In this document: one piece after another, positions 1 through 28,513 of the stretch
How the letters are laid out: every line of letters starts with the position of its first letter
How positions within the stretch are numbered: the stretch's first letter is position 1
Assembly: GCF_003019035.1 (NCBI RefSeq)
Contig: NZ_CP027447.1
Direction: 5' to 3' (one strand)
From: Escherichia coli
GTDB lineage: Bacteria; Pseudomonadota; Gammaproteobacteria; Enterobacterales; Enterobacteriaceae
DNA: 64,000 nucleotides
The notes under the pieces: generated by a model
What the model was told of the DNA's origin: nothing
The model's input: the letters and a program-made list of their open reading frames with translations, nothing else
Database searches by the model: none
Made by a program: the position numbers and the translations under genes

Positions 1-12
1 GTTGCGGGTTTT

Positions 13-735
13 TTAAAAAGGAAAATGAATCAGCTCAACGTCATCCGCCGTGACTTTTACCATTGAACCTTCCGTATGCCAGGCACCCAGCACGACGCGA
101 AAAGCAGGTTGCTGATTGGCGATAAGTTCATGTACCGCCGGGCGATGGGTATGTCCGTGGATCAGCCATTGCACCTGATGTTTTTCCATCGCACTGACCA
201 CCGCGTTTTGGTTAACGTCCATGATCGCCAGCGATTTACTGCTGTTGGCTTCTTTGCTGTTCGCTCGCATTCGCGCGGCAATGCGTTTACGCACAAACAA
301 CGGCAGGGCGAGGAATAGCGTTTGCAGCCAGGGTTTGTGGACTTTGGCGCGAAAAGCCTGATAACCGGCGTCATCGGTGCACAGCGTGTCGCCATGCATA
401 ATCAATACCCGGCGACCATACAGTTCGAGCACCTTTTCTTCCGGCAATAACGTCATGCCGCTTTCACGGGCAAAGCGTTTGCCGAGCAGAAAATCACGGT
501 TGCCATGAATGAAATAACAGGGAACGCCGGAATCGGACACCGCTTTGATCGCTGCCGCCATCTGGCGATGGAGTGGGTTGGGATCGTCGTCGCCAATCCA
601 CGCTTCAAACAGATCGCCAAGAATATACAGCGCGTCGGCATTGCGGGCCTCCCCCGCTAAAAATCGCAGAAAACCGGCGGTGATCGCCGGTTCTTCCACG
701 CAGAGATGAAGATCTGCAATAAAGAGTGTCGCCAC
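13..735 (-). CDS. lpxH: UDP-2,3-diacylglucosamine diphosphatase LpxH
   Basis: 240-aa ORF with GTG start at 733-735. Metallophosphoesterase motifs are present (DLHL, GDLFE, GNRD, HGHTH). Sequence and lpxH-ppiB-cysS synteny match E. coli LpxH. Confidence 0.95.
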
Positions 736-737
736 GA

Positions 738-1232
738 TTACTCGCTAACGGTCACGCTTTCAATGATAACGTCTTCTTTTGGCACGTCCTGGTGCATACC
801 GCTACGACCGGTTGCCACACCTTTGATTTTGTCTACCACGTCCATGCCTTCAACCACTTCAGCAAATACGCAGTAGCCCCAACCTTGCAGGCTTTCGCCA
901 GAGAAGTTCAGGAAGTCGTTATCAACCACGTTGATGAAGAACTGTGCAGTTGCAGAGTGCGGTGCCTGAGTACGGGCCATTGCCAGCGTACCACGGGTAT
1001 TTTTCAGACCGTTGTTGGCTTCGTTTTTGATCGGGTCTTTGGTGGCTTTTTGCTTCATGCCCGGTTCAAAACCGCCGCCCTGAATCATAAAGCCGTTGAT
1101 AACACGGTGGAAAATGGTGTTGTTGTAAAAACCTTCGCGGCAGTAGTCCAGGAAGTTTTTAACTGTTTCAGGTGCTTTATCGTCAAAAGTTTTGATGACA
1201 ATATCGCCGTGATTGGTGTGGAAAGTAACCAT
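738..1232 (-). CDS. ppiB: peptidyl-prolyl cis-trans isomerase B (cyclophilin)
   Basis: 164-aa ORF with cyclophilin signature ([14 protein letters not shown]). The stop lies 2 nt from the lpxH start. Recognised as E. coli PpiB. Confidence 0.96.
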
Positions 1233-1405
1233 TTTTGCATCCTGTTCCGTTTGATTGGTGCTTCAACCCGGTTCGGGTCATATATAGGGTGGTGTTATAG
1301 CATAACCGCACGATCGGATCATCACGCAATGTATGCTGATTCGCGCGGGAAATATGGGTATTATACGCAACTCAATTACCCACACATGTCTAAACGGAAT
1401 CTTCG

Positions 1406-2791
1406 ATGCTAAAAATCTTCAATACTCTGACACGCCAAAAAGAGGAATTTAAGCCTATTCACGCCGGGGAAGTCGGCATGTACGTGTGTGGAATCACCGT
1501 TTACGATCTCTGTCATATCGGTCACGGGCGTACCTTTGTTGCCTTTGACGTGGTTGCGCGCTATCTGCGTTTCCTCGGCTATAAGCTGAAGTATGTGCGC
1601 AACATTACCGATATCGACGACAAAATCATCAAACGCGCCAATGAAAATGGCGAAAGCTTTGTGGCGCTGGTGGATCGCATGATCGACGAAATGCATAAAG
1701 ATTTTGATGCGTTGAACATTTTGCGCCCGGATATGGAGCCGCGCGCGACGCACCATATCGCAGAAATTATTGAACTCACTGAACAACTGATCGCCAAAGG
1801 TCACGCTTATGTGGCGGACAACGGCGACGTGATGTTCGACGTACCGACCGATCCGACCTATGGCGTGCTGTCGCGTCAGGATCTCGACCAGCTGCAGGCA
1901 GGCGCGCGCGTTGACGTGGTCGACGACAAACGCAACCCGATGGACTTCGTTCTGTGGAAGATGTCGAAAGAGGGCGAACCGAGCTGGCCGTCTCCGTGGG
2001 GCGCGGGCCGTCCTGGCTGGCACATTGAGTGTTCGGCAATGAACTGCAAACAGTTGGGTAACCACTTTGATATCCACGGCGGCGGTTCTGACCTGATGTT
2101 CCCGCACCACGAGAACGAAATCGCGCAGTCCACCTGTGCCCATGATGGCCAGTATGTGAACTACTGGATGCACTCGGGGATGGTGATGGTTGACCGCGAG
2201 AAGATGTCCAAATCGCTGGGTAACTTCTTTACCGTGCGCGATGTGCTGAAATACTACGACGCGGAAACCGTGCGTTACTTCCTGATGTCGGGGCACTATC
2301 GCAGCCAGCTGAACTATAGCGAAGAGAACCTGAAGCAGGCGCGTGCGGCGCTGGAGCGTCTCTACACTGCGCTGCGCGGCACAGATAAAACTGTTGCGCC
2401 TGCCGGTGGCGAAGCGTTTGAAGCGCGCTTTATTGAAGCGATGGACGACGATTTCAACACCCCGGAAGCCTATTCCGTGCTGTTTGATATGGCGCGTGAA
2501 GTGAACCGTCTGAAAGCAGAAGATATGGCAGCGGCGAATGCAATGGCATCTCACCTGCGTAAACTTTCCGCCGTATTGGGCCTGCTGGAGCAAGAACCGG
2601 AAGCGTTCCTGCAAAGCGGAGCGCAGGCAGACGACAGCGAAGTGGCTGAGATTGAAGCGTTAATTCAACAGCGTCTGGATGCCCGTAAAGCGAAAGACTG
2701 GGCGGCGGCAGATGCGGCACGTGACCGTCTTAACGAGATGGGGATCGTGCTGGAAGATGGCCCGCAAGGGACCACCTGGCGTCGTAAGTAA
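1406..2791 (+). CDS. cysS: cysteine--tRNA ligase
   Basis: 461-aa ORF with class I aaRS HIGH-type motif (CHIGHGRT) and KMSKS motif. Recognised as E. coli CysS. Confidence 0.97.
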
Positions 2792-2801
2792 TTGCGCTAT
2801 T

Positions 2802-2826
2802 GCCGGATGCGAGTTTTCGCATCCGG
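2802..2826. terminator. GC-rich hairpin between convergent cysS and ybcI (REP-like, probable bidirectional terminator)
   Basis: Arms ccggatgcg (2803-2811) and cgcatccgg (2818-2826) flank a 6-nt loop. The hairpin lies exactly between the cysS stop (2791) and the ybcI stop (2827). Confidence 0.6.
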
Positions 2827-3348
2827 TTATCGTCTGCGCCACCACAACATTCCCATCAGTAGCATCCCCGGCAACCACACCCAGATCAATTCAGAAATAA
2901 TCACCTTGTGCCCGTACGGCGTGGTGTAACGAGACAATGCAAACGGCGCGACTTTGATCACCTGCCAGGGAGCGAAAAAGCGTTCATCTGACCACGGCCA
3001 CAGCCAGCCAACCCCTTTACCGCCAGTGGTTACCGAATCCAGCAAGCTGTGCGATAGCAACGAGACGGTTAAAAACAGCCAGCAGCGAATCAGCCCAGCC
3101 CTGAACCATCGACGTCCAATCAGCACACATAACAGCGGGACAACAAACGCAAACACCAGCGAATGGGTAAACCCGCGATGACCAAAAACATTGCCGTAAG
3201 CAACGCCAAATTTAAACGACAATACGTCGGCATCAGGCAGCATCGCCAGGACGATTCCGGCAAATAACAGGCGCGGAGGGATGACTTTTGAACCCAACCC
3301 TAAACCAATGCAAAGGGGAACGGCGGCGTGCGTAATAACGGTTGGCAT
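2827..3348 (-). CDS. ybcI: inner-membrane metal-dependent hydrolase family protein YbcI (DUF457)
   Basis: 173-aa hydrophobic ORF with several His residues. Position and sequence match E. coli YbcI. Confidence 0.9.
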   Translation of the reverse strand: MPTVITHAAVPLCIGLGLGSKVIPPRLLFAGIVLAMLPDADVLSFKFGVAYGNVFGHRGFTHSLVFAFVVPLLCVLIGRRWFRAGLIRCWLFLTVSLLSHSLLDSVTTGGKGVGWLWPWSDERFFAPWQVIKVAPFALSRYTTPYGHKVIISELIWVWLPGMLLMGMLWWRRR

Positions 3349-3412
3349 GATGGTCGCTTCGGCAAAATGTCGATGCTATCAGCATGGATGAACGGGGCGT
3401 AGAGGGCAACAG

Positions 3413-3447
3413 TCTGAAAAGAGAACCGGCCTGTTGTTACAGGCCGG
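3413..3447 (-). terminator. Rho-independent terminator downstream of folD-ybcJ
   Basis: Arms ccggcctg (3426-3433) and caggccgg (3440-3447) flank a 6-nt loop. On the minus strand the hairpin is followed by a T-rich run (ttctctttt). It sits 9 nt after the ybcJ stop. Confidence 0.65.
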
Positions 3448-3455
3448 GAAAGGGA

Positions 3456-3668
3456 TCAGGCAACAACCTGTACGCTGTGACCTGCAAAACTCACTGTCTG
3501 CCCGGCGACGATTTTGCAGCGTTTGCGCGTTTCAACCGCACCGTCGACTTTCACCTGGCCTTCGGCAATCGCGATTTTCGCCTGCGCGCCGCTTTCGCTC
3601 CAGCCTTCCAGTTTCAGCAAGTCGCACAGCTCAACGTGCGGATGTTTACCTAAAGAAAATGTCGCCAT
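3456..3668 (-). CDS. ybcJ: S4-like RNA-binding protein YbcJ
   Basis: The ORF track gives 88 aa. I chose the internal ATG at 3666-3668 (MATFSLGK...), which gives the 70-aa K-12 length and places the start 1 nt after the folD stop. Confidence 0.85.
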   Translation of the reverse strand: MATFSLGKHPHVELCDLLKLEGWSESGAQAKIAIAEGQVKVDGAVETRKRCKIVAGQTVSFAGHSVQVVA

Positions 3669-3669
3669 G

Positions 3670-4536
3670 TTACTCACCCTGTGGATCATGATATTCAACG
3701 CACGCCTGTAGCGTGTTTTCAATCAGCGTGGCAACCGTCATCGGGCCAACGCCGCCCGGAACAGGCGTAATGTATGAGGCGCGTTTAGCCGCGTCTTCAA
3801 ACACGACGTCGCCCACAACTTTGCCATTTTCCAGACGGTTGATGCCGACATCAATCACAATTGCGCCTTCTTTGATCCAGTCACCAGGAATAAAGCCCGG
3901 CTTGCCGACGGCAACGATCAGTAGATCGGCATTTTCTACGTGGTGACGCAGATTTTTAGTGAAACGGTGAGTCACGGTGGTGGTGCAACCTGCCAGTAGC
4001 AGTTCCATGCTCATCGGGCGGCCAACGATATTCGATGCGCCAATCACCACGGCGTTGAGGCCGAAGGTATCAATGTTGTAACGCTCAAGCAGCGTGACAA
4101 TACCGCGCGGGGTGCAGGGACGCAGACGCGGCGCGCGCTGGCACAGGCGACCGACGTTATAAGGATGGAAACCGTCTACGTCTTTGTCCGGGTGTATACG
4201 TTCCAGCACTTTGACGTTATCAATACCCGCCGGTAACGGCAGTTGAACCAGAATGCCATCAATGGTGTTGTCGGCATTCAGCGTATCGATAAGCTCCAGC
4301 AGCTCCGCTTCGCTGGTGGTTTCCGGGAGGTCATAAGAGCGGGAGACGAACCCGACTTCTTCACAAGCCTTGCGTTTGCTTGCGACATAAATTTGCGATG
4401 CAGGGTTACTACCCACCAGCACAACGGCCAGTCCTGGTGCCCGCAGTCCGGCTGCAATACGCGCCTGAACTTTTTGAGCAACTTCAGAGCGCACCTGCTG
4501 CGCAATCGTTTTACCGTCAATAATCTTTGCTGCCAT
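3670..4536 (-). CDS. folD: bifunctional methylenetetrahydrofolate dehydrogenase / methenyl-THF cyclohydrolase
   Basis: 288-aa ORF recognised as E. coli FolD, with the NADP-binding GxSxxVGxP region (GASNIVGRP). Confidence 0.97.
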
Positions 4537-5007
4537 CAGAGAGAGGATTCCATCTGTTACGTAGGTCGAAGGGGATGCGCCTATTTTGTCAGAAGCGGGG
4601 CGCGCTGTCAGGTTTCGTTTCAGATTTATCGCGTGAAGCGACCTCTTGCGAAGGTGAGGCGCACCGTCGCTGAGATTGAAAGCTTCATTTTTCGTCCATG
4701 ATGACGTTGTAAATCTGGAACTGATTTATTTCCTTGTCTAAGGATTAAGATAATTTAAGAAATACCTGACAATATAAAAAGAATTTTCAGCCTGGTAATT
4801 TACCGCTTCAGGTCTATATTTGTGTTGAATATATTTTGCGCGGAAATATTCATCTAACGGGGCTCTCTATTTTTTAGAATAGAGTGCATATTTTCAATTA
4901 AGACATTCTTAGAGGATAAAAAGGAATTTTACTACTATCAGTGTCTTAAATAAAGTAATCGGTTATATACGGATGTGGAGTCGATAAATGAGATTGAAGG
5001 AATATAT

Positions 5008-5550
5008 ATGAAATTAAGATTTATTTCGTCTGCGCTGGCCGCCGCACTATTCGCCGCTACGGGTAGTTATGCTGCCGTTGTAGATGGCGGTACAATTCAC
5101 TTTGAAGGCGAACTGGTGAATGCTGCCTGTTCAGTGAATACTGACTCGGCAGACCAGGTTGTCACACTCGGTCAATATCGTACCGATATTTTCAATGCTG
5201 TTGGTAATACCTCTGCATTAATTCCATTCACTATACAGTTGAACGACTGCGATCCTGTCGTTGCCGCTAATGCTGCCGTTGCATTTTCTGGTCAGGCGGA
5301 TGCAATCAATGATAATTTATTGGCCATTGCATCCAGTACTAATACAACAACAGCAACGGGTGTCGGTATTGAAATACTTGATAATACATCCGCAATTCTC
5401 AAACCTGATGGGAATAGCTTCTCAACCAACCAGAACTTGATCCCCGGGACCAACGTTCTTCATTTTTCTGCACGTTATAAAGGCACCGGTACAAGTGCAT
5501 CAGCAGGGCAAGCAAATGCTGACGCGACTTTTATTATGAGATACGAATAA
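5008..5550 (+). CDS. sfmA: type 1-like fimbrial major subunit SfmA
   Basis: The ATG at 5008 ([16 protein letters not shown]...) gives 180 aa with a signal peptide, the fimbrial Cys pair and a C-terminal beta-strand motif. An AT-rich upstream region is typical of fimbrial promoters. Confidence 0.92.
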
Positions 5551-5570
5551 TCAAAACCACGTTGTTTTGA
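5551..5570 (+). terminator. possible intra-operon attenuator hairpin after the major pilin gene
   Basis: Arms tcaaaac and gttttga flank a 6-nt loop immediately after the sfmA stop. The stem is weak and there is no clean U-run. Confidence 0.3.
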
Positions 5571-5768
5571 ATTATATATCACGTCTTATAACAAAGTAAT
5601 GTACCGGTTGTCTGAAGCGGTATGGTGGCAATGTAAATCGAAATCACGTTCACTTTGTATCATGCCGCTTTATTAAATGAAAAGGGAATGATGTGTGTAA
5701 GAAACCAAAGCAATCATTTCTTTATACTCCTTATTTTTGCCGTCAGGAATACACAAGGCGTATTAACT

Positions 5769-6461
5769 ATGATGACTAAAATAAAGTTATTGATGCTCAT
5801 TATATTTTATTTAATCATTTCGACCAGCGCCCATGCTGCCGGAGGGATCGCATTAGGTGCCACGCGTATTATTTATCCCGCTGATGCTAAACAGACTGCG
5901 GTATGGATTAGAAATAGCCATACCAATGAGCGCTTTCTGGTCAATTCGTGGATTGAAAACAGCAGCGGTGTAAAAGAAAAGTCATTCATCATTACACCGC
6001 CACTGTTTGTTAGTGAACCCAAAAGCGAAAATACTTTGCGTATTATTTACACCGGTCCACCGCTGGCGGCAGATCGTGAGTCTCTGTTCTGGATGAATGT
6101 TAAGACGATCCCTTCGGTAGATAAAAATGCATTGAACGGCAGGAATGTTTTGCAACTGGCGATTTTATCGCGCATGAAATTATTTCTCCGTCCAATTCAA
6201 TTACAAGAATTACCCGCAGAAGCGCCGGACACACTCAAGTTTTCGCGATCCGGTAACTATATCAATGTTCATAATCCATCACCTTTTTATGTCACCCTGG
6301 TTAACTTGCAAGTGGGCAGCCAAAAACTGGGGAATGCTATGGCTGCACCCAGAGTTAATTCACAAATTCCCTTACCCTCAGGAGTGCAGGGAAAGCTGAA
6401 ATTTCAGACCGTTAATGATTATGGTTCAGTAACCCCGGTCAGAGAAGTGAACTTAAACTAA
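5769..6461 (+). CDS. sfmC: periplasmic fimbrial chaperone SfmC (PapD family)
   Basis: The internal start MMTKIKLL... at 5769 gives 230 aa with a signal peptide. PapD-like chaperone sequence sits between the pilin and usher genes. Confidence 0.92.
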
Positions 6462-20117: not shown

Positions 20118-20834
20118 TTAGTACAAAAAAGCAGCGTTACGTGATCTTTCCCTGTGTAATCCCCCAGCTAAATCATGAACTTTTTGAGCCATTTTACTTA
20201 ATTCAGGGCAGGCTCCTAAACCTAATGGATCTGTGAAGCAACACGGATTCAGCACATAACCATAAGTGTTTAGTCCACCCAATACACCCAGGGGGTCACT
20301 CACCAGATACATCCCGGTCTCCGGCTCGTAGTACCGGAACCGGTTATAGCACAGCCCTGACTCCGCATCCCGCCACTGCCCCGCATACAGCAGACCGGGG
20401 TCCGCTTCTGCGTCTCGCTCCCCGCGCGGGTCCGGGTAGTCCCTGTCTGCGCTGACGCTGAGTGCCAGCCCCCACAGGCTGGTCTGCTCCGCACGCCACA
20501 CCACGTTACCCTGACTGTTAAAGAGCATCACCGGGCGGCCTGTCAGGTCGCTTACCGCATGGCTGGTCCGCGTCACCCACTGCGGGGCCACGGACGGGTG
20601 CGGCTGCCGTACCCGGCTGAACTGCTGGCTTATCAGCTCAAAGCCGTTAAACACCAGGTACCGCACACTGTACAGTTTATCATCGCGGTATTCCCGGATT
20701 TCCGCAATAGTGTCGCCGTCCCACAGATATGTGATGCGGAGGGCTTTTTGTTTGCAGCGTTTCTCTGTCCGTCTGCCACTGGCGTCGTGGCAGTATTCCC
20801 ACTGCTCACCCCGGGCGCTGCGGTAGCCGATCAC
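20118..20834 (-). pseudogene. orphan rhs 3' fragment (core end plus a 32-codon tip), not an independent gene
   Basis: It aligns with residues near the end of the full-length Rhs core (168 of 204 residues identical by hand alignment), including DPLGV..(18)..DPLGL. Homology continues upstream of the first Met to about 20850 with no SD or start context. Only 32 codons follow DPLGL before the stop, which lies 7 nt from the tentative IS end. Confidence 0.8.
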
Positions 20835-20850
20835 GGCTGTCGTGGCGGAA
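20217..20850 (-). repeat. direct repeat copy 1 (rhs core 3' end, orphan copy)
   Basis: About 630 bp, collinear with 21694-22335 in the same orientation. It has one small indel near the upstream end. Confidence 0.8.
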
Positions 20851-20863
20851 CTTTATCTCTTTT

Positions 20864-21253
20864 TTATTTAATCCAGTAAGCTAATCTCTCACCAATCTTC
20901 AAATTTTCTCTTTTGTAATAAAATACAGTATCAAAGTTAATGGATATTTTTTTCGCAATAACTTTGAATTTCAATTCAAATTCCGAATAAAACTCTAATA
21001 CTAACATTTCACGAGCATTGTCAGTGCAACTTGATAGCTTAATAAACTCCTCATTAAGATCGCATGACCAGTCCATAACACCGCTAATATAGCATGGCGT
21101 GTCTATTATTATTTCCAGTGTGTGATAGTAAGAAAGGTCATCACTCCCGGAAATAATCAAGCGATTATGTTCATAAAGAAAAACTGAAAAATCCAACCAA
21201 CTTTCTTTCCAATTATGGTGCTTTATATCATTAATTATGTTTTGCTCACTCAT
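20864..21253 (-). CDS. putative cognate Rhs immunity protein (family unassigned)
   Basis: 129-aa ORF whose ATG overlaps the rhs stop (ATGA at 21250-21253). It shares the AT-rich composition of the toxin tip. It has no signal peptide or TM segment, and its position is typical of rhsI genes. Confidence 0.7.
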   Translation of the reverse strand: MSEQNIINDIKHHNWKESWLDFSVFLYEHNRLIISGSDDLSYYHTLEIIIDTPCYISGVMDWSCDLNEEFIKLSSCTDNAREMLVLEFYSEFELKFKVIAKKISINFDTVFYYKRENLKIGERLAYWIK

Positions 21254-24200
21254 GGAATAGTTCCTGTAGGCAATGGTATATGAGTATCATTTGCAGCTCC
21301 TGGATTATAATTCGGACTTTTAGTTTTCAAATCAGATGTATGATGCCAACTGCCATCAGGAGAACCATACTCCCAACCATAGCCTTGATTAGTCGCAGGA
21401 TTTGTTCCACTTTGGCTTCTACCAATCCTATATATGGGGCCATTGGCAGAATTACTCCCTGCTGGAGCAGTAGGGTTTACATCATGAGCCCTTACTTCAT
21501 ATTTATAATTTCCGACGGTGAATTTTTCTTTAAATTTTATAGGGTAGTTATGCCCAGACAAGCCTTGCCGATGTAAAGCATAATTTAACACATCCTGCGG
21601 TGAGGTATTTTTAATTGCTTGATGCGCTTGTGCTGCTGTCATACCTTGAGAACGATTGTATTTATACCAATCATACATCACAGGACATATAGCTAATCCC
21701 AAAGGATCAACATACCCCAGCGGATTAGGCACATACCGGTAAGTCTGCTCACCCCCCAGCAACCCCAGTGGATCACTCACCAGGTACATCCCGGTTTCCG
21801 GCTCGTAATACCGGAACCGGTTATAGCACAGCCCCGATTCCGCATCCTGCCACTGCCCCGCATACAGCAGGCCGGGGTCGGCTTCCGGGTCCAGCTCCCC
21901 GCGCGGGTCCGGGTAGCCGGTGTCTGCGGGCAGGCTGAGTGCCAGCCCCCACAGGCTGGTCTGCCCCGGTCGCCAGACGGTTTTACCTTCACTGTTAAAG
22001 AGCACCAGCGGACGGCCCGTCAGGTCGCTCACCGCATGATTCGTTCGCGTCACCCACTGCGGGGCCACGGACGGATGCGGCTGCCGTACCCGGCTGAACT
22101 GCTGACTCAGCAGCTCAAAGCCGTTAAACACCAGGTGCCGTACGCTGTACAGTTTATCATCCCGGTATTCCCGCATTTCCGCAATACTGTCGCCGTCCCA
22201 CAGATACGTAAAACGGATTTTCTTCCGGTCGCAGCGTTTTTCCGTCCGCCTGCCGCTGGCGTCGTGGCGGTATTCCCACTGCTCACCCTGTGCGCTGCAA
22301 TACCCGGTCAGCTGGTCCCGGCTGTCCCACCGGAACCGCTCTGTTTCCGGGCGGTAGCCGTCACGGTGTCTGGTGCGGCTGACCATCCGGCCTGCGGCGT
22401 CATAGCTGTAGTCTGTGTTTCCGGTCTGTTTCAGCCGGTGGCCGCGCTGATACATGTCAGTATCCACGCTTATCCGGTGCCTGCCCGCCGACTGCGCCTT
22501 CAGGTAGCCACAACTGTCATAGCCATAGGACTCATCGCCTTCGCCATAGCCCAGCCCGGTGCCTGAGGCTGTCACCGCCGTGACCTGGCCGTTCCGGTCC
22601 AGCCGGTACTCCCGCCGTGTTTCCCGTCCGTAGTCTTCCCGGCTGGTGACAGCCGACATATTGCCCGCGCTGTCGTAACGGTACTCCCGCACCAGTGAGG
22701 GGAGCAGTCCGCCCCATGTGGCTTCCGCCGGGAAAAGTCCGGCGCGCTGGCTGGTAAGCTGACCGGCTGCATTCCAGCCCTGCTCACAGGCAAAACCCCG
22801 GTTACTGTGCCGGAGCACTTCACGTCCTGCCTCATCACGGCTGAACGTCAGCGTCTCATCCCCCGGCAGGATAACCTCCGTCAGTTCTCCGGCGGCGTTG
22901 TAGCGGTAGGTGGTTTTCAGCAGGGATTCACCGGGGTGTCTGTCGCGTTCATCTTCCGGTGGCAGGATACAGCGGATGACGGTGTGTTCATCGGGGTGGT
23001 GGTATTCAATGGCCCGTCGGCCCTGAGTGGTGACATTCACCCGCCCGCGTTCGTCATAGCCGGTGCGCTGTGATGTACCGTCCGGGCTGAAGATACCCGT
23101 CAGCCTGCCGGATTTGTCATAGGCATACTGCGTTTTGCCTTCCGGCGAGATGACTTCTGCCAGGCGGCCTGCGGCGTCCCGGCTGTAGAGGATAGTTTCC
23201 TCCAGGCCGTTAACCCTGGCGGTACAAAGGCCATCGGCGTCATAGCGGTAACGCCAGACCACGCCGCCCCAGTCACGCTCTTCCGTCACCCGTCCACAGT
23301 TGTCCAGAATATAACGGTATGACTCGCCCTGCGGATTGATGACTTCTGTCAGTTGCAGCGTGTCTTTATCGTAGCGGTACTGCCAGCGGTGGCCTTCACC
23401 GTCCGTTCGCGCCACCGGCAAATCGAACGGGCCGTATTCCATCGTCCAGACAACGCCGTTGCCGTCCGTCCAGGCCAGCAGGTTGCCGTGGCGGTCATAG
23501 CGAAATCCTTCCGCGCCGGTGCCAGTGCGTTCAAGGCCGCTCAGTTTATGGTGCTGCTGCCACCGTAACCGCACTGACTGACCGCCGGGGCCGCGCATCT
23601 TCACCGGCAGGTCGTGACCGCTGTATTCGGTGTGGTGTTCACGGCCCATCACGTCGGTGAGTGTTTCCGGCCGGTTGTGGTGGTCGTACTCTATGCCCAG
23701 ACGCCGTTCATCCTGGCGGAATATCCCCGACAGCAGCCCCTGCGGCGTGTACGCCAGCCGGGTCTCTTCGCCCTGTGGCGACACCAGACTTACCGGCAGG
23801 CCGCGTTCATCACACTGCTGCGTCCACATCTGCCCGGCAGGGTCGGTGATGTTGCTGAGCAGGCCGCGCTCATCATAGCAGTACTGCCACTCCGCACCGT
23901 CTGCCGCCGTGTAACGGCTTAACTGACCGTGTGCGGCGTTGTATTCAAACTTCTCCACCCGCCCGGCAGGGGAGTGGCGGGCCAGCAGGTGATGGAATTC
24001 ATCCCATTCATACATGGTGGTGCTGCCGTCCGGCGCTGCTTCCCGCAGAATATTGCCGTCAGGATCATAGTAATAACGGTGAATGCCCTTGCCGTCCGTC
24101 ACGGTGGTGCAGCCGTCACCATAGTCCAGCGTGGCGTTGTAATAGCCCTCCGCCCCGGTGACGGTCACGCACCGGCCCTGTGCATCGTAGGTGAAACGGC

Positions 24201-26103
24201 TCCACGTCTGGTCGTTATCGGACCAGCGGATGATCCGGTCCGCAGCGTCGTACTCATAAAACAGGTGGTAGTCCAGCCGCGCATCCGCTTCTGTCAGCCG
24301 CCCCCGCGCATCCTGTTCGTAGGTCGCCAGCATCTGTATGCCGTTATCCGTACGGTGAATGGCTTTCAGGTAGCCGCTGGCATGGTACGTCAGTTTAAGC
24401 CGGATCCCGTCGGTGTGACTGACACCCATGATGCGGTACTGGCTGTCGCGCTCAAACGTGATGCGGTTGCTGGCGGTGTCGCTCATCCCGCCCAGCATGT
24501 ACATCCGGTCTGCGGGGCTGTGTGCCAGACGGTCATCGCAGGTATCGTCAGTCACCGGGTGGCGCAGGCGCATTCCCGGAAAGGCGTCATAAAAGAAGCG
24601 GCTGCTCAGTGCATCACGGTCGAACAGCTCCAGGTAATCGTCGCGGCGGCGCAGAATGTACTGGGCGTGATACGGGTTAACCGCCGTATCACTGTCACCG
24701 TCGAAGGCAAATCTCAGCGTGGTTCCCTGGCTGATGATATCCACCCGGTTTCCCTGTTCACGCACCCAGGCGTATTCGCTCCAGGAGTCGCTCCAGCCCA
24801 CGCCCGTCAGACCATGCAGCGGCAGTACAGAACTGTGGAAACGGGTGAAGGAGAGGGGGAGTGTCTGGCCCAGCGTAAAGTCGGTACGTTCGTCGCAGTA
24901 TGCGCCGGTTACCGGATCGACAGGATCTGTTACCCATCTGATGACTTTATTGGCAATACTTTTTAACGACTTACCTGTTTTCCCCAGCAACGCGCCGAGC
25001 TTTGCCCCCAGCAGCTTCCCGCTTTTCCCCAGCAGGTTTCCCAGTTTGCCGAGTTTCGCCAGATTCCCCAGTTTTCCCAGCAGTCCCGCGGGCGGCAGAA
25101 GATAGCTGGCTATCGTTATTCCCCCCAGGATCATTCTCTGCCACGGCGGGAACTCCGGCTGGATATCCAGATAGGTCACCTGTTCACCGCCAATAAAGAC
25201 GTCCGGCGAACCTTCCACGATTGCCGCGCTGCACTCCAGTTTGTCCCCTTTGCGTGCGGCAGTCTGATTGTTGATAAAGACGTTGCTGCTGCCCTGGGCT
25301 ATCCTCGGTGGTTTGTTCTCCTTGTCGCAGAGCGCCGTGTCCTCACCGGCTTCCGGGAAATCCACGTCTTTTTTGATTTCGCCACGCCCGCCCACCATGG
25401 TGGCAAACTCCATTAATACCGGACCGGCGGGAAACAGAAGCGATGCGCCGGCGCTGACGCGATCCATAATACCGGCATTGCTGTCCGTCAGGGTGATAAC
25501 AGCGTTCCCCCAGGCCTTCGCCAGTGGTACTGCTTTTTCCGCTGCCGATTCAAGCAGGTCAGTGGCAATATCACCCCATGAGGGTTCCCCCTGTGGTGGA
25601 GAGGGTATTGCTTCAGTCAGGGGAGGAGGGGGAAGGGTGACGGCGGCCCTGGCAGCGGGCTTTCCGTTAATGTTTACATTTTTAGAACCAGTATTGATGG
25701 CCCCGTCCGTGTCACAAAAACTGTTTATCCATGATTCAAGCTGGTTCTGTTTCTCCTCCACATAATCACTCGCCTTATAGCTGGCATACATCAGCGCAGG
25801 CACCAGAACCAGCGCATAAGGGCCGGTGGCACAGGCGGCCATAATCAGGCAACCTTCTGCGATGGTCACTATCGCCCCCAGCACGGCCCCTGCCAGCGCC
25901 CCCAAAAAACTCTTGTGCTGAATTTCATCGCCCAGCCTGGCTGCGGGGGGGCCAGACTTTTTTGATGCCAACATCTGTGCAATGGCTTTGTCGTTGGCTG
26001 CCCGTTTCATCTGGCTGGCGACCATCGCCTGCTGTGACAGCATTCGCATTGCCAGCGTACCGCCTGCGGTCGCTCCCTGTGGCCCGCCTGGTCCTTCACT
26101 CAT
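21250..26103 (-). CDS. rhs: T6SS prePAAR/PAAR-Rhs polymorphic toxin (1617 aa) with a 147-aa variable C-terminal toxin domain
   Basis: The N-terminus carries the prePAAR motif AARLGDEIQH and two hydrophobic helices. PAAR-like motifs follow (INGKPAARA, INNQTAARKGD, VFIGGE). The Rhs core starts at RWVTDPVDPVTGAY and contains many YD repeats. The core ends at DPLGLLGGEQTYRYVPNPLGYVDPLGL, followed by an unrelated AT-rich tip (21253-21693). Confidence 0.93.
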   Translation of the reverse strand: MSEGPGGPQGATAGGTLAMRMLSQQAMVASQMKRAANDKAIAQMLASKKSGPPAARLGDEIQHKSFLGALAGAVLGAIVTIAEGCLIMAACATGPYALVLVPALMYASYKASDYVEEKQNQLESWINSFCDTDGAINTGSKNVNINGKPAARAAVTLPPPPLTEAIPSPPQGEPSWGDIATDLLESAAEKAVPLAKAWGNAVITLTDSNAGIMDRVSAGASLLFPAGPVLMEFATMVGGRGEIKKDVDFPEAGEDTALCDKENKPPRIAQGSSNVFINNQTAARKGDKLECSAAIVEGSPDVFIGGEQVTYLDIQPEFPPWQRMILGGITIASYLLPPAGLLGKLGNLAKLGKLGNLLGKSGKLLGAKLGALLGKTGKSLKSIANKVIRWVTDPVDPVTGAYCDERTDFTLGQTLPLSFTRFHSSVLPLHGLTGVGWSDSWSEYAWVREQGNRVDIISQGTTLRFAFDGDSDTAVNPYHAQYILRRRDDYLELFDRDALSSRFFYDAFPGMRLRHPVTDDTCDDRLAHSPADRMYMLGGMSDTASNRITFERDSQYRIMGVSHTDGIRLKLTYHASGYLKAIHRTDNGIQMLATYEQDARGRLTEADARLDYHLFYEYDAADRIIRWSDNDQTWSRFTYDAQGRCVTVTGAEGYYNATLDYGDGCTTVTDGKGIHRYYYDPDGNILREAAPDGSTTMYEWDEFHHLLARHSPAGRVEKFEYNAAHGQLSRYTAADGAEWQYCYDERGLLSNITDPAGQMWTQQCDERGLPVSLVSPQGEETRLAYTPQGLLSGIFRQDERRLGIEYDHHNRPETLTDVMGREHHTEYSGHDLPVKMRGPGGQSVRLRWQQHHKLSGLERTGTGAEGFRYDRHGNLLAWTDGNGVVWTMEYGPFDLPVARTDGEGHRWQYRYDKDTLQLTEVINPQGESYRYILDNCGRVTEERDWGGVVWRYRYDADGLCTARVNGLEETILYSRDAAGRLAEVISPEGKTQYAYDKSGRLTGIFSPDGTSQRTGYDERGRVNVTTQGRRAIEYHHPDEHTVIRCILPPEDERDRHPGESLLKTTYRYNAAGELTEVILPGDETLTFSRDEAGREVLRHSNRGFACEQGWNAAGQLTSQRAGLFPAEATWGGLLPSLVREYRYDSAGNMSAVTSREDYGRETRREYRLDRNGQVTAVTASGTGLGYGEGDESYGYDSCGYLKAQSAGRHRISVDTDMYQRGHRLKQTGNTDYSYDAAGRMVSRTRHRDGYRPETERFRWDSRDQLTGYCSAQGEQWEYRHDASGRRTEKRCDRKKIRFTYLWDGDSIAEMREYRDDKLYSVRHLVFNGFELLSQQFSRVRQPHPSVAPQWVTRTNHAVSDLTGRPLVLFNSEGKTVWRPGQTSLWGLALSLPADTGYPDPRGELDPEADPGLLYAGQWQDAESGLCYNRFRYYEPETGMYLVSDPLGLLGGEQTYRYVPNPLGYVDPLGLAICPVMYDWYKYNRSQGMTAAQAHQAIKNTSPQDVLNYALHRQGLSGHNYPIKFKEKFTVGNYKYEVRAHDVNPTAPAGSNSANGPIYRIGRSQSGTNPATNQGYGWEYGSPDGSWHHTSDLKTKSPNYNPGAANDTHIPLPTGTIP
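21694..22335 (-). repeat. direct repeat copy 2 (rhs core 3' end, in the full-length gene)
   Basis: Homologous to 20217-20850; see the orphan fragment. Confidence 0.8.
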
Positions 26104-26122: not shown

Positions 26123-26584
26123 TCAGCGCGGCTGGTCCTTTTGGATGTCATTCTCCGGTGGCAACGGGGTGAAGCTCTTTATCACCTCCAGCAGCATCGT
26201 CTTTTGACTGTTCTTCAGGGATAAGGAGGTGCTGAAAGTGAAGGTCAGCAGCGTATCTCCACGCCGCTGGAATACGGCTATCTGGCTAATCCGCCCCTGA
26301 TTCCCTTCATCTTCCGGACCGTTCCAGGAATAATCCAGCAGCCAGGCCGGGGCCTCTGCCAGAGTGATTTCCCGGCAGGCATGTTCGGTGTACCCATCAA
26401 GTTTGCCCTGGTACAGCGCCAGCGTTTCCTGGTACAGCTCTGGTGTCAGGGTTCCCTGTGGAACGGCTTCGCGGGTAATGACCAGGTTGATGCCACTGTT
26501 ATCTGTGGACACCAGGACCTGCATTGACTGATCCTGCCATTGAGACGGCAGTTGAATGTGGCCTTCATTAAAAGTGAACTGCAT
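26123..26584 (-). CDS. DUF1795 (DcrB-like) Eag-family effector chaperone
   Basis: 153-aa ORF (MQFTFNEGHIQLPSQWQDQSMQVLV...) located between vgrG and the prePAAR-Rhs gene, with an AGGGAG SD. Its size, N-terminal pattern and position are typical of EagR/SciW chaperones. Confidence 0.8.
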   Translation of the reverse strand: MQFTFNEGHIQLPSQWQDQSMQVLVSTDNSGINLVITREAVPQGTLTPELYQETLALYQGKLDGYTEHACREITLAEAPAWLLDYSWNGPEDEGNQGRISQIAVFQRRGDTLLTFTFSTSLSLKNSQKTMLLEVIKSFTPLPPENDIQKDQPR

Positions 26585-26611: not shown

Positions 26612-28513
26612 TCAGTTGATGAAAACAGAACCGCCCACGATGGTGATGCCATCCTTCGACAGCCTGATTACCGTCGATTCCCCGACCTGTAGCTGTATGC
26701 CATCCGGCGTCAGCGCAATTTTGCTTTCCTCCACGGCCAGCAAAATTTCCTTAATCGCCGTATAAGCCTGTATACCGTCGCCTTCGCCACCATTGTTTAC
26801 AGCGTCAACATGCACCGAACCGGCAATCGTGCCTCTGTCCTGAAAGACATCCTCAGATAAAGACCCTTTCAGTACTCCGGTGATCTTGTGGCCTTTTTCC
26901 ACCGTAAGAAGGCGGTTACCTTCCTGGATCGTGACCGTCTGGTCATTTTTTACGGTTTCGCGGTGATCGTGTTTTACGGTGGTGGTACGGTCGTTGAGCA
27001 CTTCGGTATCCATGTTCTTCTGCGCGTGGATGTAGACCTGTTCTCTCCCTGTCGCATCATCAAACTTCAGCTCATTAAATCCGCTGCCCATGTACGTTTT
27101 GGAGCGGATGGTCATCTGCGTCTTTGTTCCCGGCAGGCTGCCGGGGGTGCGGTTTTCCTGGTGGTAGGTGCGCCCCATAATGATCGGCTGGTCCGGATCG
27201 CCGTTGAGGAAGTCTACAATCACTTCCTGACCCACACGCGGTATCGCCAGGTGGCCAAAACCGGTGCCTGCCCACGCCTGTGCCACACGGATCCAGCACG
27301 AACTGTCTTGGTCTGCCGGGTTATAACGGTCCCAGTTGAACTTCACCCGCACGCGACCATGTTCGTCGCAGAAGATTTCCTCGCCTGCCGGTCCTGTCAC
27401 GACAGCGCTCTGCGGGCCGTCGACCAGCGGTTTCAGCAACGGCTGTGGTCGCCATGTTCTGTCTGCCGGGATCACCGCAAAATGGTTCTCCAGCGCCGTC
27501 CCCGCTCCCTGCCGTCCTGGCACCGCCTGTGGCTGTTCGCCGTGCAGTTCACTTGCCACCACCTGCCATTCCCGGTTCAGGTTCGCCTGCGGATGCCCCG
27601 TCAGCACAATTCGTCGTCCCGGCCATATCTCCGGCGAGCGACTCATTCCCCGCGCGGTTTCTGCATTGTTTCGCCAGCCGTCCATCTGCCAGCGGGCAAA
27701 GTTCTGCCCGTGGGCACCCTTGAAACGTCCGGGGTAGTCATACACTTCATACTGCGTGCGCTGGTAGTCCTGGTGCTGGCCTTCCTGTTCAAAACGTCCG
27801 GCCCAGCCGGGGCGTTTAAAGGTGTAGTCTTTGGTCACCACGGAAGAAGGGCGGATTTGTGCGCTGTAGCGGAACTGGCTGATGCAGAGGGTGCTCACCT
27901 CGGTACGGGTGTTCGGGTTCCATGGGATTTCAAAAGATTCGGGCAGATGGCGGACTGTGTCGCACAGCACCAGGCTCTGGTCGGTACTTTTGTAAGCATG
28001 CTCCTCATAAAAGAAGATGCCTTCCTCCGCCGCCATCCGGCACAGGAAATCGTAATCAGTCTCACCGTACTGGACACAAAACTCACGGGAAGGATGCGGC
28101 TCGCTGAACAGCGGACTCCATTCGGTCACCCCGTTTTCCTGCAACATCGTGCCGAGGATGCTTTTGATGTCCTCGTTCTGGAAGATACGGAAGTTCTGGC
28201 GCAGACCGGCACGCCACAGCGGCGGGTGCACCTTCATGCTGTACAGCATCTGGTTTTTGTCGTTCTCCCCCAGTTCAAACCAGGTCACCACGCCTTTCAC
28301 CCGGCGCTGTACTTCATCGCCCTGCCATATCGTCAGGTAGGCCATTTTGTCCAGCACCTGCGCAAATTCAAGGGAGAGAAACTGCTGGCTGACCAGGGAG
28401 AGATCGAGGGAAAAGAGCGAAGAGAGTGACTGGTTCAGATGAAAGGAAACCACCGCAAAAGCATCCGGCGGCAGGCCGTCCACTTCCAGTGTGAAACGTA
28501 ATCCGGTTGACAT
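26612..28513 (-). CDS. vgrG: T6SS spike protein VgrG
   Basis: 633-aa ORF with a gp27-like N-terminus (MSTGLRFTLEVDGLP...) and a gp5-like OB and beta-helix region (VGQEVIVDFLNGDPDQPIIMGRTYH). A GGAGG SD lies 8 nt upstream. Confidence 0.93.
   Translation of the reverse strand: MSTGLRFTLEVDGLPPDAFAVVSFHLNQSLSSLFSLDLSLVSQQFLSLEFAQVLDKMAYLTIWQGDEVQRRVKGVVTWFELGENDKNQMLYSMKVHPPLWRAGLRQNFRIFQNEDIKSILGTMLQENGVTEWSPLFSEPHPSREFCVQYGETDYDFLCRMAAEEGIFFYEEHAYKSTDQSLVLCDTVRHLPESFEIPWNPNTRTEVSTLCISQFRYSAQIRPSSVVTKDYTFKRPGWAGRFEQEGQHQDYQRTQYEVYDYPGRFKGAHGQNFARWQMDGWRNNAETARGMSRSPEIWPGRRIVLTGHPQANLNREWQVVASELHGEQPQAVPGRQGAGTALENHFAVIPADRTWRPQPLLKPLVDGPQSAVVTGPAGEEIFCDEHGRVRVKFNWDRYNPADQDSSCWIRVAQAWAGTGFGHLAIPRVGQEVIVDFLNGDPDQPIIMGRTYHQENRTPGSLPGTKTQMTIRSKTYMGSGFNELKFDDATGREQVYIHAQKNMDTEVLNDRTTTVKHDHRETVKNDQTVTIQEGNRLLTVEKGHKITGVLKGSLSEDVFQDRGTIAGSVHVDAVNNGGEGDGIQAYTAIKEILLAVEESKIALTPDGIQLQVGESTVIRLSKDGITIVGGSVFIN

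Follow-up and report, generated by a model that had tools for sequence, protein, structure and literature searches.

The Rhs toxin tip of an Escherichia coli type VI secretion island as a predicted nuclease of the Ntox30 family, and its possible kinship with PT7/PIM7

The window analyzed in this work is a stretch of 64,000 nucleotides from Escherichia coli (NCBI RefSeq assembly GCF_003019035.1, contig NZ_CP027447.1), in which a PAAR-Rhs effector encoded on the minus strand ends with a C-terminal toxin tip. Our comparisons place this tip, with near certainty as far as sequence can tell, in the Ntox30 family (Pfam PF15532). As the best overall reading, to which we give about an even chance, we propose that it is a cytoplasmic Ntox30 nuclease delivered by a type VI secretion system (T6SS), with H70 and H138 (tip numbering) in the active site and with RNA as the favored substrate. 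The original prediction, made from the nucleotide sequence, had described a polymorphic toxin tip at the end of an Rhs protein, delimited by the DPLGL autoproteolysis motif, and with this we agree; its label of "unassigned family" was wrong, because the tip gives an above-threshold match to PF15532 and carries the full signature of the family. The features on which the argument depends are:

21250..26103, minus strand: PAAR-Rhs effector, intact open reading frame (ORF) of 1617 aa with the toxin tip as its C-terminus (ORF list and Pfam)
21694..21774, minus strand: end of the Rhs core, DPLGL-x17-DPLGL, the C-terminal autoproteolysis motif (direct reading of the translation)
21253..21693, minus strand: toxin tip, 147 aa in 147 codons, followed by the stop codon at 21250-21252 (translation and Pfam)
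21268..21525, minus strand: stretch matched by Pfam Ntox30, tip residues 57-142 on profile positions 29-103 of 103
20864..21253, minus strand: putative cognate immunity gene, 129 aa, whose ATG overlaps the TGA of the toxin gene by 4 nt as ATGA

Against PF15532 the tip scores 47.8 bits (E 1.8e-12) where the gathering threshold is 25, and Ntox30 is the sole Pfam family that matches it at E<=1. A Pfam scan had been proposed as a check of the original prediction, and what it returned, well above threshold, is a confident match to a family that has been described already, in silico only. Ntox30 was defined by Zhang, de Souza, Anantharaman, Iyer & Aravind in 2012 (PMC3482391) as an all-beta domain with the signature RxH, R and THIP, found with RHS repeats and with delivery by type II, type VI or type VII secretion systems (T2SS, T6SS, T7SS) or TcdB/TcaC; no immunity family was given for it. 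In the tip this signature is complete (R68-A69-H70, R89 and T137-H138-I139-P140), the C-terminus reading ...ANDTH138IPLPTGTIP before the stop codon. Close homologues from Citrobacter, Kosakonia and metagenomes, with 67-84% identity, already bear the name 'polymorphic toxin type 30 domain-containing protein'. Since Ntox30 has been curated since 2012, since an Ntox30 domain was covered by the papers of Ma et al. 2017 (according to PMC9635880), and since 82 RefSeq records match the queried 1 kb around the tip at an identity of at least 99%, the tip belongs to a known kind, of which it is an ordinary member, and does not represent a new family.

An exhaustive search for homologues yielded 181 representative clusters at E<=1e-3. 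Among the 150 of 181 cluster matches listed, the domain occupies the extreme C-terminus in nearly all, in carriers of up to 4885 aa, and at every locus examined a small ORF follows the Ntox30 cassette. Two giant adhesins of the Bacteroidetes type (P0088, 3617 aa, and P0089, 2913 aa) matched the tip at E 1e-32 and 1e-23 and were excluded as spurious, because these values sum 21 and 15 weak repeat matches, respectively, all confined to tip residues 14-64. Both proteins carry 15-21 tandem repeats of about 80 residues (KSKVYGSTDP...GNYxITASGYTSxNYTISY), and their case calls for caution in single-sequence phmmer searches. A locus in Cytobacillus purgationiresistens (positions 840-4760) contains an Rhs/YD-shell gene, about eight small ORFs without Pfam matches, an orphan Ntox30-like cassette with a neighboring ORF, and transposase genes of the IS110 family; this arrangement is that of a typical orphan toxin/immunity array, and the Pfam model misses its toxin (13.7 bits). 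Comparison of the tip, the Ntox30 profile, the profile of the immunity family, and the Cytobacillus homologue and its neighbor with PDB sequences gave nothing meaningful.

The coordinates and the frame given in the original prediction, i.e. a tip of 147 residues at 21253-21693 with a W-H-H triplet at 21340-21348, are confirmed by translation: the minus strand of 20600-22000 reads ...VSDPLGLLGGEQTYRYVPNPLGYVDPLGL, then AICPVMYDWYKYN...NDTHIPLPTGTIP, and then a stop codon. In Rhs/TcC proteins an aspartyl autoprotease cuts at the end of the core, and by analogy we infer cleavage after the second DPLGL, at 21694-21708. The fraction of G+C, 0.61-0.69 in the Rhs core, drops to 0.37-0.44 in the tip and to 0.32-0.37 in the downstream ORF, which bears out the description of the DNA past the boundary as AT-rich. 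It had further been claimed that conservation with an orphan rhs copy farther downstream in the window stops immediately after the second DPLGL. This holds for the protein, where identity to the orphan fragment is nearly complete up to that motif and is limited to a C-P dipeptide beyond it, but not for the DNA, where the junction is somewhat more gradual: identity is ~90% until the first DPLGL, declines from there to the second motif, and is lost past it. In the full-length effector Pfam recognizes RHS_repeat (E 7.7e-76, 14 stretches), PAAR_motif (E 1.4e-14), DUF6531, and Ntox30 at residues 1527-1612, whereas the match to prePAAR_I is weak and sub-threshold (22.4 vs 25 bits).

To identify the residues that define the family, 212 homologues collected from the homologue and cluster searches were aligned to the family profile. 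The signature positions stand out, as opposed to the W-H-H triplet:

21484..21492, minus strand: R68-A69-H70, the RxH motif, predicted to be catalytic (R68 in 99% and H70 in 96% of the homologues)
21418..21429, minus strand: R89-I-G-R92, arginines on the strand 87-94, predicted to bind phosphate (R89 98%, R92 88%); the 'R' of the Ntox30 signature
21274..21285, minus strand: T137-H138-I139-P140, the THIP motif with the second predicted catalytic histidine (T137 96%, H138 99%, I139 95%, P140 62%)
21340..21348, minus strand: W116-H117-H118, the triplet singled out in the original prediction, unconserved (W116 73%; H117 55%, Y in 35%; H118 44%, P in 21% and K in 16%)

No acidic residue is invariant among these homologues, the best candidates being E66 (62%), E108 (69%) and D136 (56%). 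The AlphaFold2 model of the tip, built from a 75-sequence alignment with a predicted local distance difference test (pLDDT) score of 94 and a predicted template-modeling (pTM) score of 0.86, opens with three helices (residues 4-42) and continues into a core (54-140) made mainly of strands, in which any helices are short, in agreement with the all-beta core expected of Ntox30. A Foldseek search of the PDB with this model gave no match at E<=0.001.

These data bear directly on the two folds to which the tip had been tentatively likened. The first was the WHH clade of the HNH/EndoVII treble-clef nucleases, suggested by the literal W116-H117-H118 and by N135-D-T-H138 17 residues on. However, both histidines of the triplet are frequently substituted by Y, F, P, K or S, no Cys/His zinc-ligand pattern is visible, and neither a WHH/HNH match in Pfam at E<=1 nor a match to an HNH/treble-clef fold was obtained; conservation refutes this assignment, to which we attach next to no probability. 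The second was the barnase/RNase Sa-type fold of microbial RNases, with E66, R89 and H118 as the catalytic residues. The order E...R...H is indeed present in the tip, and metal-independent RNase chemistry is plausible for Ntox30, but two of the three residues are poorly conserved (E66, and H118 in 44%), and neither a barnase-like match in sequence or fold nor the Glu-Arg-His site of such a fold was found. Moreover, the predicted topology of three N-terminal helices and a beta core is unlike the alpha+beta arrangement of barnase, on which the current model does not superpose, and PMC3482391 describes Ntox30 as all-beta and likens the novel predicted RNases, among which it is counted, to RNase A. 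A barnase-like tip is thus highly improbable. The part of the earlier suggestion that survives is the Arg/His-based, metal-independent RNase chemistry, which coincides with what Zhang et al. predicted for Ntox30; the histidines concerned are H70 and H138 rather than the two of the WHH triplet.

The 129-aa ORF that follows the tip very probably encodes its immunity protein. The ATGA overlap at 21250-21253 suggests translational coupling of the two genes, and the tip is basic (computed pI 9.2) while the product of the downstream ORF is acidic (pI 5.0). The latter has no signal peptide and no membrane-spanning or hydrophobic segment, in line with the cytoplasmic location expected for it in the original prediction. 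It has no match in Pfam or NCBIfam, and its 67 homologues are all named 'hypothetical', those with a named organism coming without exception from Enterobacterales. One of them lies directly downstream of an Ntox30 cassette (locus L002), and toxin and immunity homologues were found on contigs of matching size (175366, 3996, 15437 and 3043 bp). In Pectobacterium the immunity homologues occur within arrays of other, unrelated immunity genes (SUKH, CdiI and Imm26); such an array (L038-L040, positions 1-6384), which includes SUKH/SMI1_KNR4 and is interleaved with short antisense ORFs resembling the SymE toxin, looks like an orphan immunity island with a repeated SymE-like element. In E. fergusonii (positions 2600-5300) a 140-aa homologue, about 55% identical, is encoded without an Ntox30 toxin; downstream of it come an unrelated 129-aa ORF and a transposase gene that has the domains DDE_Tnp_1_assoc and DDE_Tnp_1, as in the ISAs1-family gene of our window; this locus may be an orphan immunity cluster that resulted from the loss of rhs mediated by an insertion sequence. 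An 87-aa ORF upstream of the E. fergusonii homologue was considered as a toxin remnant and rejected.

Outside Enterobacterales, the small ORF after the Cytobacillus cassette matches the immunity family with an hhalign probability of 78% (E 1.9e-5), and judging from this alignment it is probably a distant homologue of the 129-aa protein. On the other hand, the ORF after the more distant Ntox30 cassette of Brevibacillus (145 aa, with weak HEAT-like matches) is unrelated to it, so immunity is not uniform across the Ntox30 family. Neither the neighbor of the Cytobacillus toxin nor PIM7, the immunity protein discussed below, has a match in Pfam or NCBIfam.

A possible link to a system with a solved structure comes from PT7, a toxin of ~76 aa fused to LXG carriers, which is toxic to E. 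coli and yeast, each of the substitutions D37A, H47A and H73A abolishing toxicity (Nachmias et al., bioRxiv 10.1101/2021.10.19.465003). According to the same study PT7 is a Mg2+-dependent, non-specific DNase sensitive to EDTA (ethylenediaminetetraacetic acid), without tRNase activity and with a 'novel fold' into which Mg2+ was modeled; in vivo it causes loss of the signal of DAPI (4',6-diamidino-2-phenylindole) and contraction of the nucleoid. The DNase assays were carried out with 'non-toxic' point mutants, and PIM7, whose binding face is negatively charged and DNA-like, failed to inhibit the activity in vitro. For our comparisons, pieces of the PT7 sequence were obtained by translating the published mutagenesis primers and confirmed against PDB chain 8owu_B; the gene was located on Bacillus plasmids, the full domain and PIM7 were read from B. 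cereus NZ_CP042875.1, and a family set was assembled from 27 loci carrying PT7 relatives. In PDB entry 8owu (chains B/C) the PT7 chain is labeled 'Transposase', as it is in some plasmid records, which hides it from keyword searches.

In hhalign the Ntox30 profile matches the PT7 family weakly, with scores of 25-28, E 4e-4 to 7e-4 and a probability of 27-36%. The family profile was needed here, because a single PT7 sequence gave a match of only 14 columns to the Ntox30 profile, and PT7 was not detected in the Pfam Ntox30 and PDB HMMER searches. The alignment that places PT7 residues 1-78 on tip residues 27-143 (score 25.2, E 6.6e-4, probability 27%) was compared with 150 column shuffles (mean 10.5 +/- 2.4, maximum 22.3), none of which reached 25.2 (0/150). 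A hidden Markov model of PT7 retrieved two Ntox30 members from a set of 215 sequences at E~0.002, on two shared motifs. Both motifs are collinear in the two families: DKxGx[IV]R[MV]RI[DH]xPD (also written DKxGxIRxRI[D/H]PxD), and D[AT]HIP, located three to nine residues before the stop codon. The PT7 segment DxNGxIRMRID37PPDK parallels DKTGTVRVRIHGPDAL of the Ntox30 member P0068, and the end of PT7, ...SPDAH73IPYK(K/M) before the stop, equates the essential His73 with H138 of the tip. The essential D37 of PT7 aligns with H70, and in two divergent PT7 relatives this position is occupied by His, as in Ntox30; H47 belongs to an invariant KYDHVH block that has no clear counterpart in the tip. The two divergent relatives, from Scandinavium sp. 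(L031, 500-1110) and from a metagenome-assembled genome of Parachlamydiaceae (L032, 1201-1760), are PT7-like with His (KVH/KIH-P-x-D) in place of the essential Asp37. Their candidate immunity protein is unlike PIM7, and its N-terminus, LSFPDFSV..., echoes the WLDFSV found in the immunity protein of E. coli (hhalign E 0.05, 9 columns only); the two loci may stand between the PT7 and Ntox30 systems as intermediates.

For the immunity families, hhalign gave a marginal score of 20.2 against a null of 12.8 +/- 2.5, a value reached by 1/100 shuffles. Like PIM7, the 129-aa protein is predicted to consist of one helix followed by an antiparallel sheet, and it is encoded directly downstream of its toxin. 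Because the toxin gives a tentative fold match, the immunity protein gives a strong fold match to the same PDB entry, the two motifs are collinear and the gene arrangement is the same, we lean towards regarding PT7 and PIM7 as reduced, divergent relatives of Ntox30 and of the 129-aa immunity family. It is tempting, with the odds evenly balanced, to go one step further and to unite Ntox30, PT7 and their immunity proteins in one ancient toxin-immunity superfamily, with a fold that has no other solved relative and with an active site in which Ntox30 carries His and most PT7 proteins carry Asp. No mention of a link between Ntox30 and PT7/PIM7 was found in the available texts.

Given the established biology of Rhs and T6SS, the tip would be enclosed in the Rhs shell and freed by the aspartyl autoprotease cut after the second DPLGL, and the assembly of VgrG, EagR and PAAR-Rhs would fire it into the cytoplasm of a neighboring cell. 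As judged by conservation, H70 of RxH and H138 of THIP would form the active site of the nuclease, with R68, R89, R92 and T137 holding the phosphate. Zhang et al. (PMC3482391) predicted that Ntox30 is a metal-independent endoRNase with two histidines; acting as general acid and base, these would leave a 2',3'-cyclic phosphate. By analogy with the PT7-PIM7 pair, the 129-aa protein, with its PIM7-like fold, would probably plug the active site.

That the tip is a nuclease of some kind appears likely to us, and a nucleic acid, among the targets anticipated in the original prediction, is the most likely one as far as the sequence comparisons go. A quite unlikely alternative is an enzyme whose His/Arg/Thr site binds the phosphate of a nucleotide, NAD(P)+, a cofactor or a phosphoprotein and which does not cleave polynucleotides. 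The conserved set of two His, three Arg and one Thr indicates phosphate chemistry but leaves the substrate unspecified, the fold searches turned up no structural relative with a known function, and no published assay of Ntox30 was found in the literature searched. However, a basic toxin with an acidic immunity protein follows the pattern of nucleic acid-binding toxins, the sole putative relative that has been studied was assigned to DNA and is countered by a protein with a negative, DNA-like face, and Pfam gives no match at E<=1 to ADP-ribosyltransferases (ART), TNT/NADases, (p)ppApp synthetases or deaminases.

Within the nucleases, an RNase is favored, though we place it slightly short of an even chance, over a DNase, which we consider rather unlikely. 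In the latter case the tip would be a Mg2+-dependent non-specific DNase like PT7, in which H70 and H138, together with D136 or residues in the D71/N73 region, bind the metal, and it would kill by degrading the chromosome. This possibility draws on the structural and motif ties to PT7/PIM7, on the EDTA-sensitive activity, the modeled Mg2+ and the loss of DAPI signal reported for PT7, and on the Asp two residues before the catalytic His in both families (D136-T-H138; D71-A-H73 in PT7); the introduction of an eLife 2022 article likewise places Ntox30 among T6SS nuclease domains in its paragraph on DNases. Nonetheless, the invariant residues of Ntox30 include His and Arg but none that is acidic, the position of the essential Asp37 of PT7 is His in Ntox30, and the invariant arginines of Ntox30 lie in a segment that PT7 lacks. 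Furthermore, because the DNase activity of PT7 was measured with mutants that are non-toxic in vivo and was not inhibited by PIM7, contamination with a host nuclease may account for it, and the contraction of the nucleoid would, in our judgment, also fit a block of translation. These considerations tip the balance towards an RNase. Three points weigh against this preference, however: no experimental activity of any Ntox30 protein was found in the literature searched, the RNase assignment being an in silico prediction of 2012; PT7, the sole putative relative studied biochemically, was reported as a DNase without tRNase activity; and the link to PT7 is weak by sequence and does not extend to the segment with R89 and R92.

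The genes surrounding the effector and its partner complete the picture of a T6SS island. The order on the minus strand is vgrG, the DcrB/DUF1795 chaperone gene, PAAR-rhs, the 129-aa ORF, the orphan rhs fragment and the ISAs1 transposase gene, and the island is flanked by cusS and nfrB (spelled 'nrfB' in the annotation):

26612..28513, minus strand: VgrG spike protein, 633 aa (Pfam Phage_GPD E 7.8e-75, Gp5_trimer_C, Phage_base_V); T6SS tip protein VgrG in the annotation of the identical locus of E. coli sequence type 648 (ST648)
26123..26584, minus strand: DcrB/DUF1795 (EagR-type) chaperone gene, 153 aa, between vgrG and rhs (Pfam DcrB E 1.4e-27)
20118..20834, minus strand: orphan rhs fragment, the end of a core and 32 residues past its DPLGL (Pfam, protein and DNA comparison); "incomplete RHS protein" in the ST648 genome
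18874..20010, minus strand: ISAs1-family transposase gene beside the orphan fragment (Pfam DDE_Tnp_1_assoc and DDE_Tnp_1; ST648 annotation)

With PAAR, RHS repeats, a DPxGL core end, and vgrG and a DUF1795 gene upstream, the locus has the features expected of a T6SS effector of the prePAAR/PAAR-Rhs type with EagR. The tail of the orphan fragment after its own DPLGL consists of 32 residues, GACPELSKMAQKVHDLAGGLHRERSRNAFLY, followed by a stop codon, and then comes the ISAs1-family transposase gene; therefore the fragment appears to have lost both its toxin tip and its immunity gene. The annotation of the ST648 reference genome treats the main rhs gene and the transposase gene alike as frameshifted pseudogenes, whereas the rhs ORF is intact in our window. 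Over 1 kb around the tip the sequence recurs with 100% identity in chromosomes of ST648-type and other strains, and at least 80% of this length is present in 120 of 5426 complete E. coli genomes (about 2%).

These results remove the false flag of an orphan family, and leave a textbook Pfam member in a standard vgrG-eagR-PAAR-rhs-immunity island. The interest that remains lies in Ntox30 itself, for which the literature searched yielded neither a measured activity nor a solved structure, in the immunity family, which is without annotation, and in the evidence that ties Ntox30 to PT7/PIM7, the one toxin-immunity pair of solved structure whose fold it may share, and which poses a concrete question: RNase or DNase? 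If the proposed superfamily is real, then one of two assignments, the RNase predicted for Ntox30 in 2012 or the DNase reported for PT7, is probably mistaken, or else the branches have switched substrate. The E. coli Rhs tip would then be a convenient and genetically tractable member with which to settle the matter.

Compared with known systems, the tip shares with Ntox30 the above-threshold score, the signature and the C-terminal location in association with RHS repeats and T6SS delivery. The Pfam profile reaches tip residues 57-142 only; the enterobacterial clade adds a helical N-terminal part (residues 1-45), of which the last helix is more widely shared, and the immunity partner is a conserved 129-aa family, where Zhang et al. 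(2012) have none. With respect to its genomic setting, the locus agrees in species and in the order vgrG, DUF1795/eagR, PAAR-rhs-CT, immunity (CT denoting the C-terminal toxin) with the E. coli modules of Ma et al. 2017, as these are summarized in PMC6730261, according to which eagR sits between vgrG and rhs; by the accounts of the reviews consulted, the experiments concerned Rhs-CT1, CT3 and CT5 only. PT7, in turn, is a domain of 78 aa carried by LXG or pre-toxin TG proteins (T7SS) of Firmicutes, without a counterpart of tip residues ~75-103, which hold R89 and R92, and the activity reported for it is that of a Mg-dependent DNase, as against the metal-independent RNase predicted for Ntox30.

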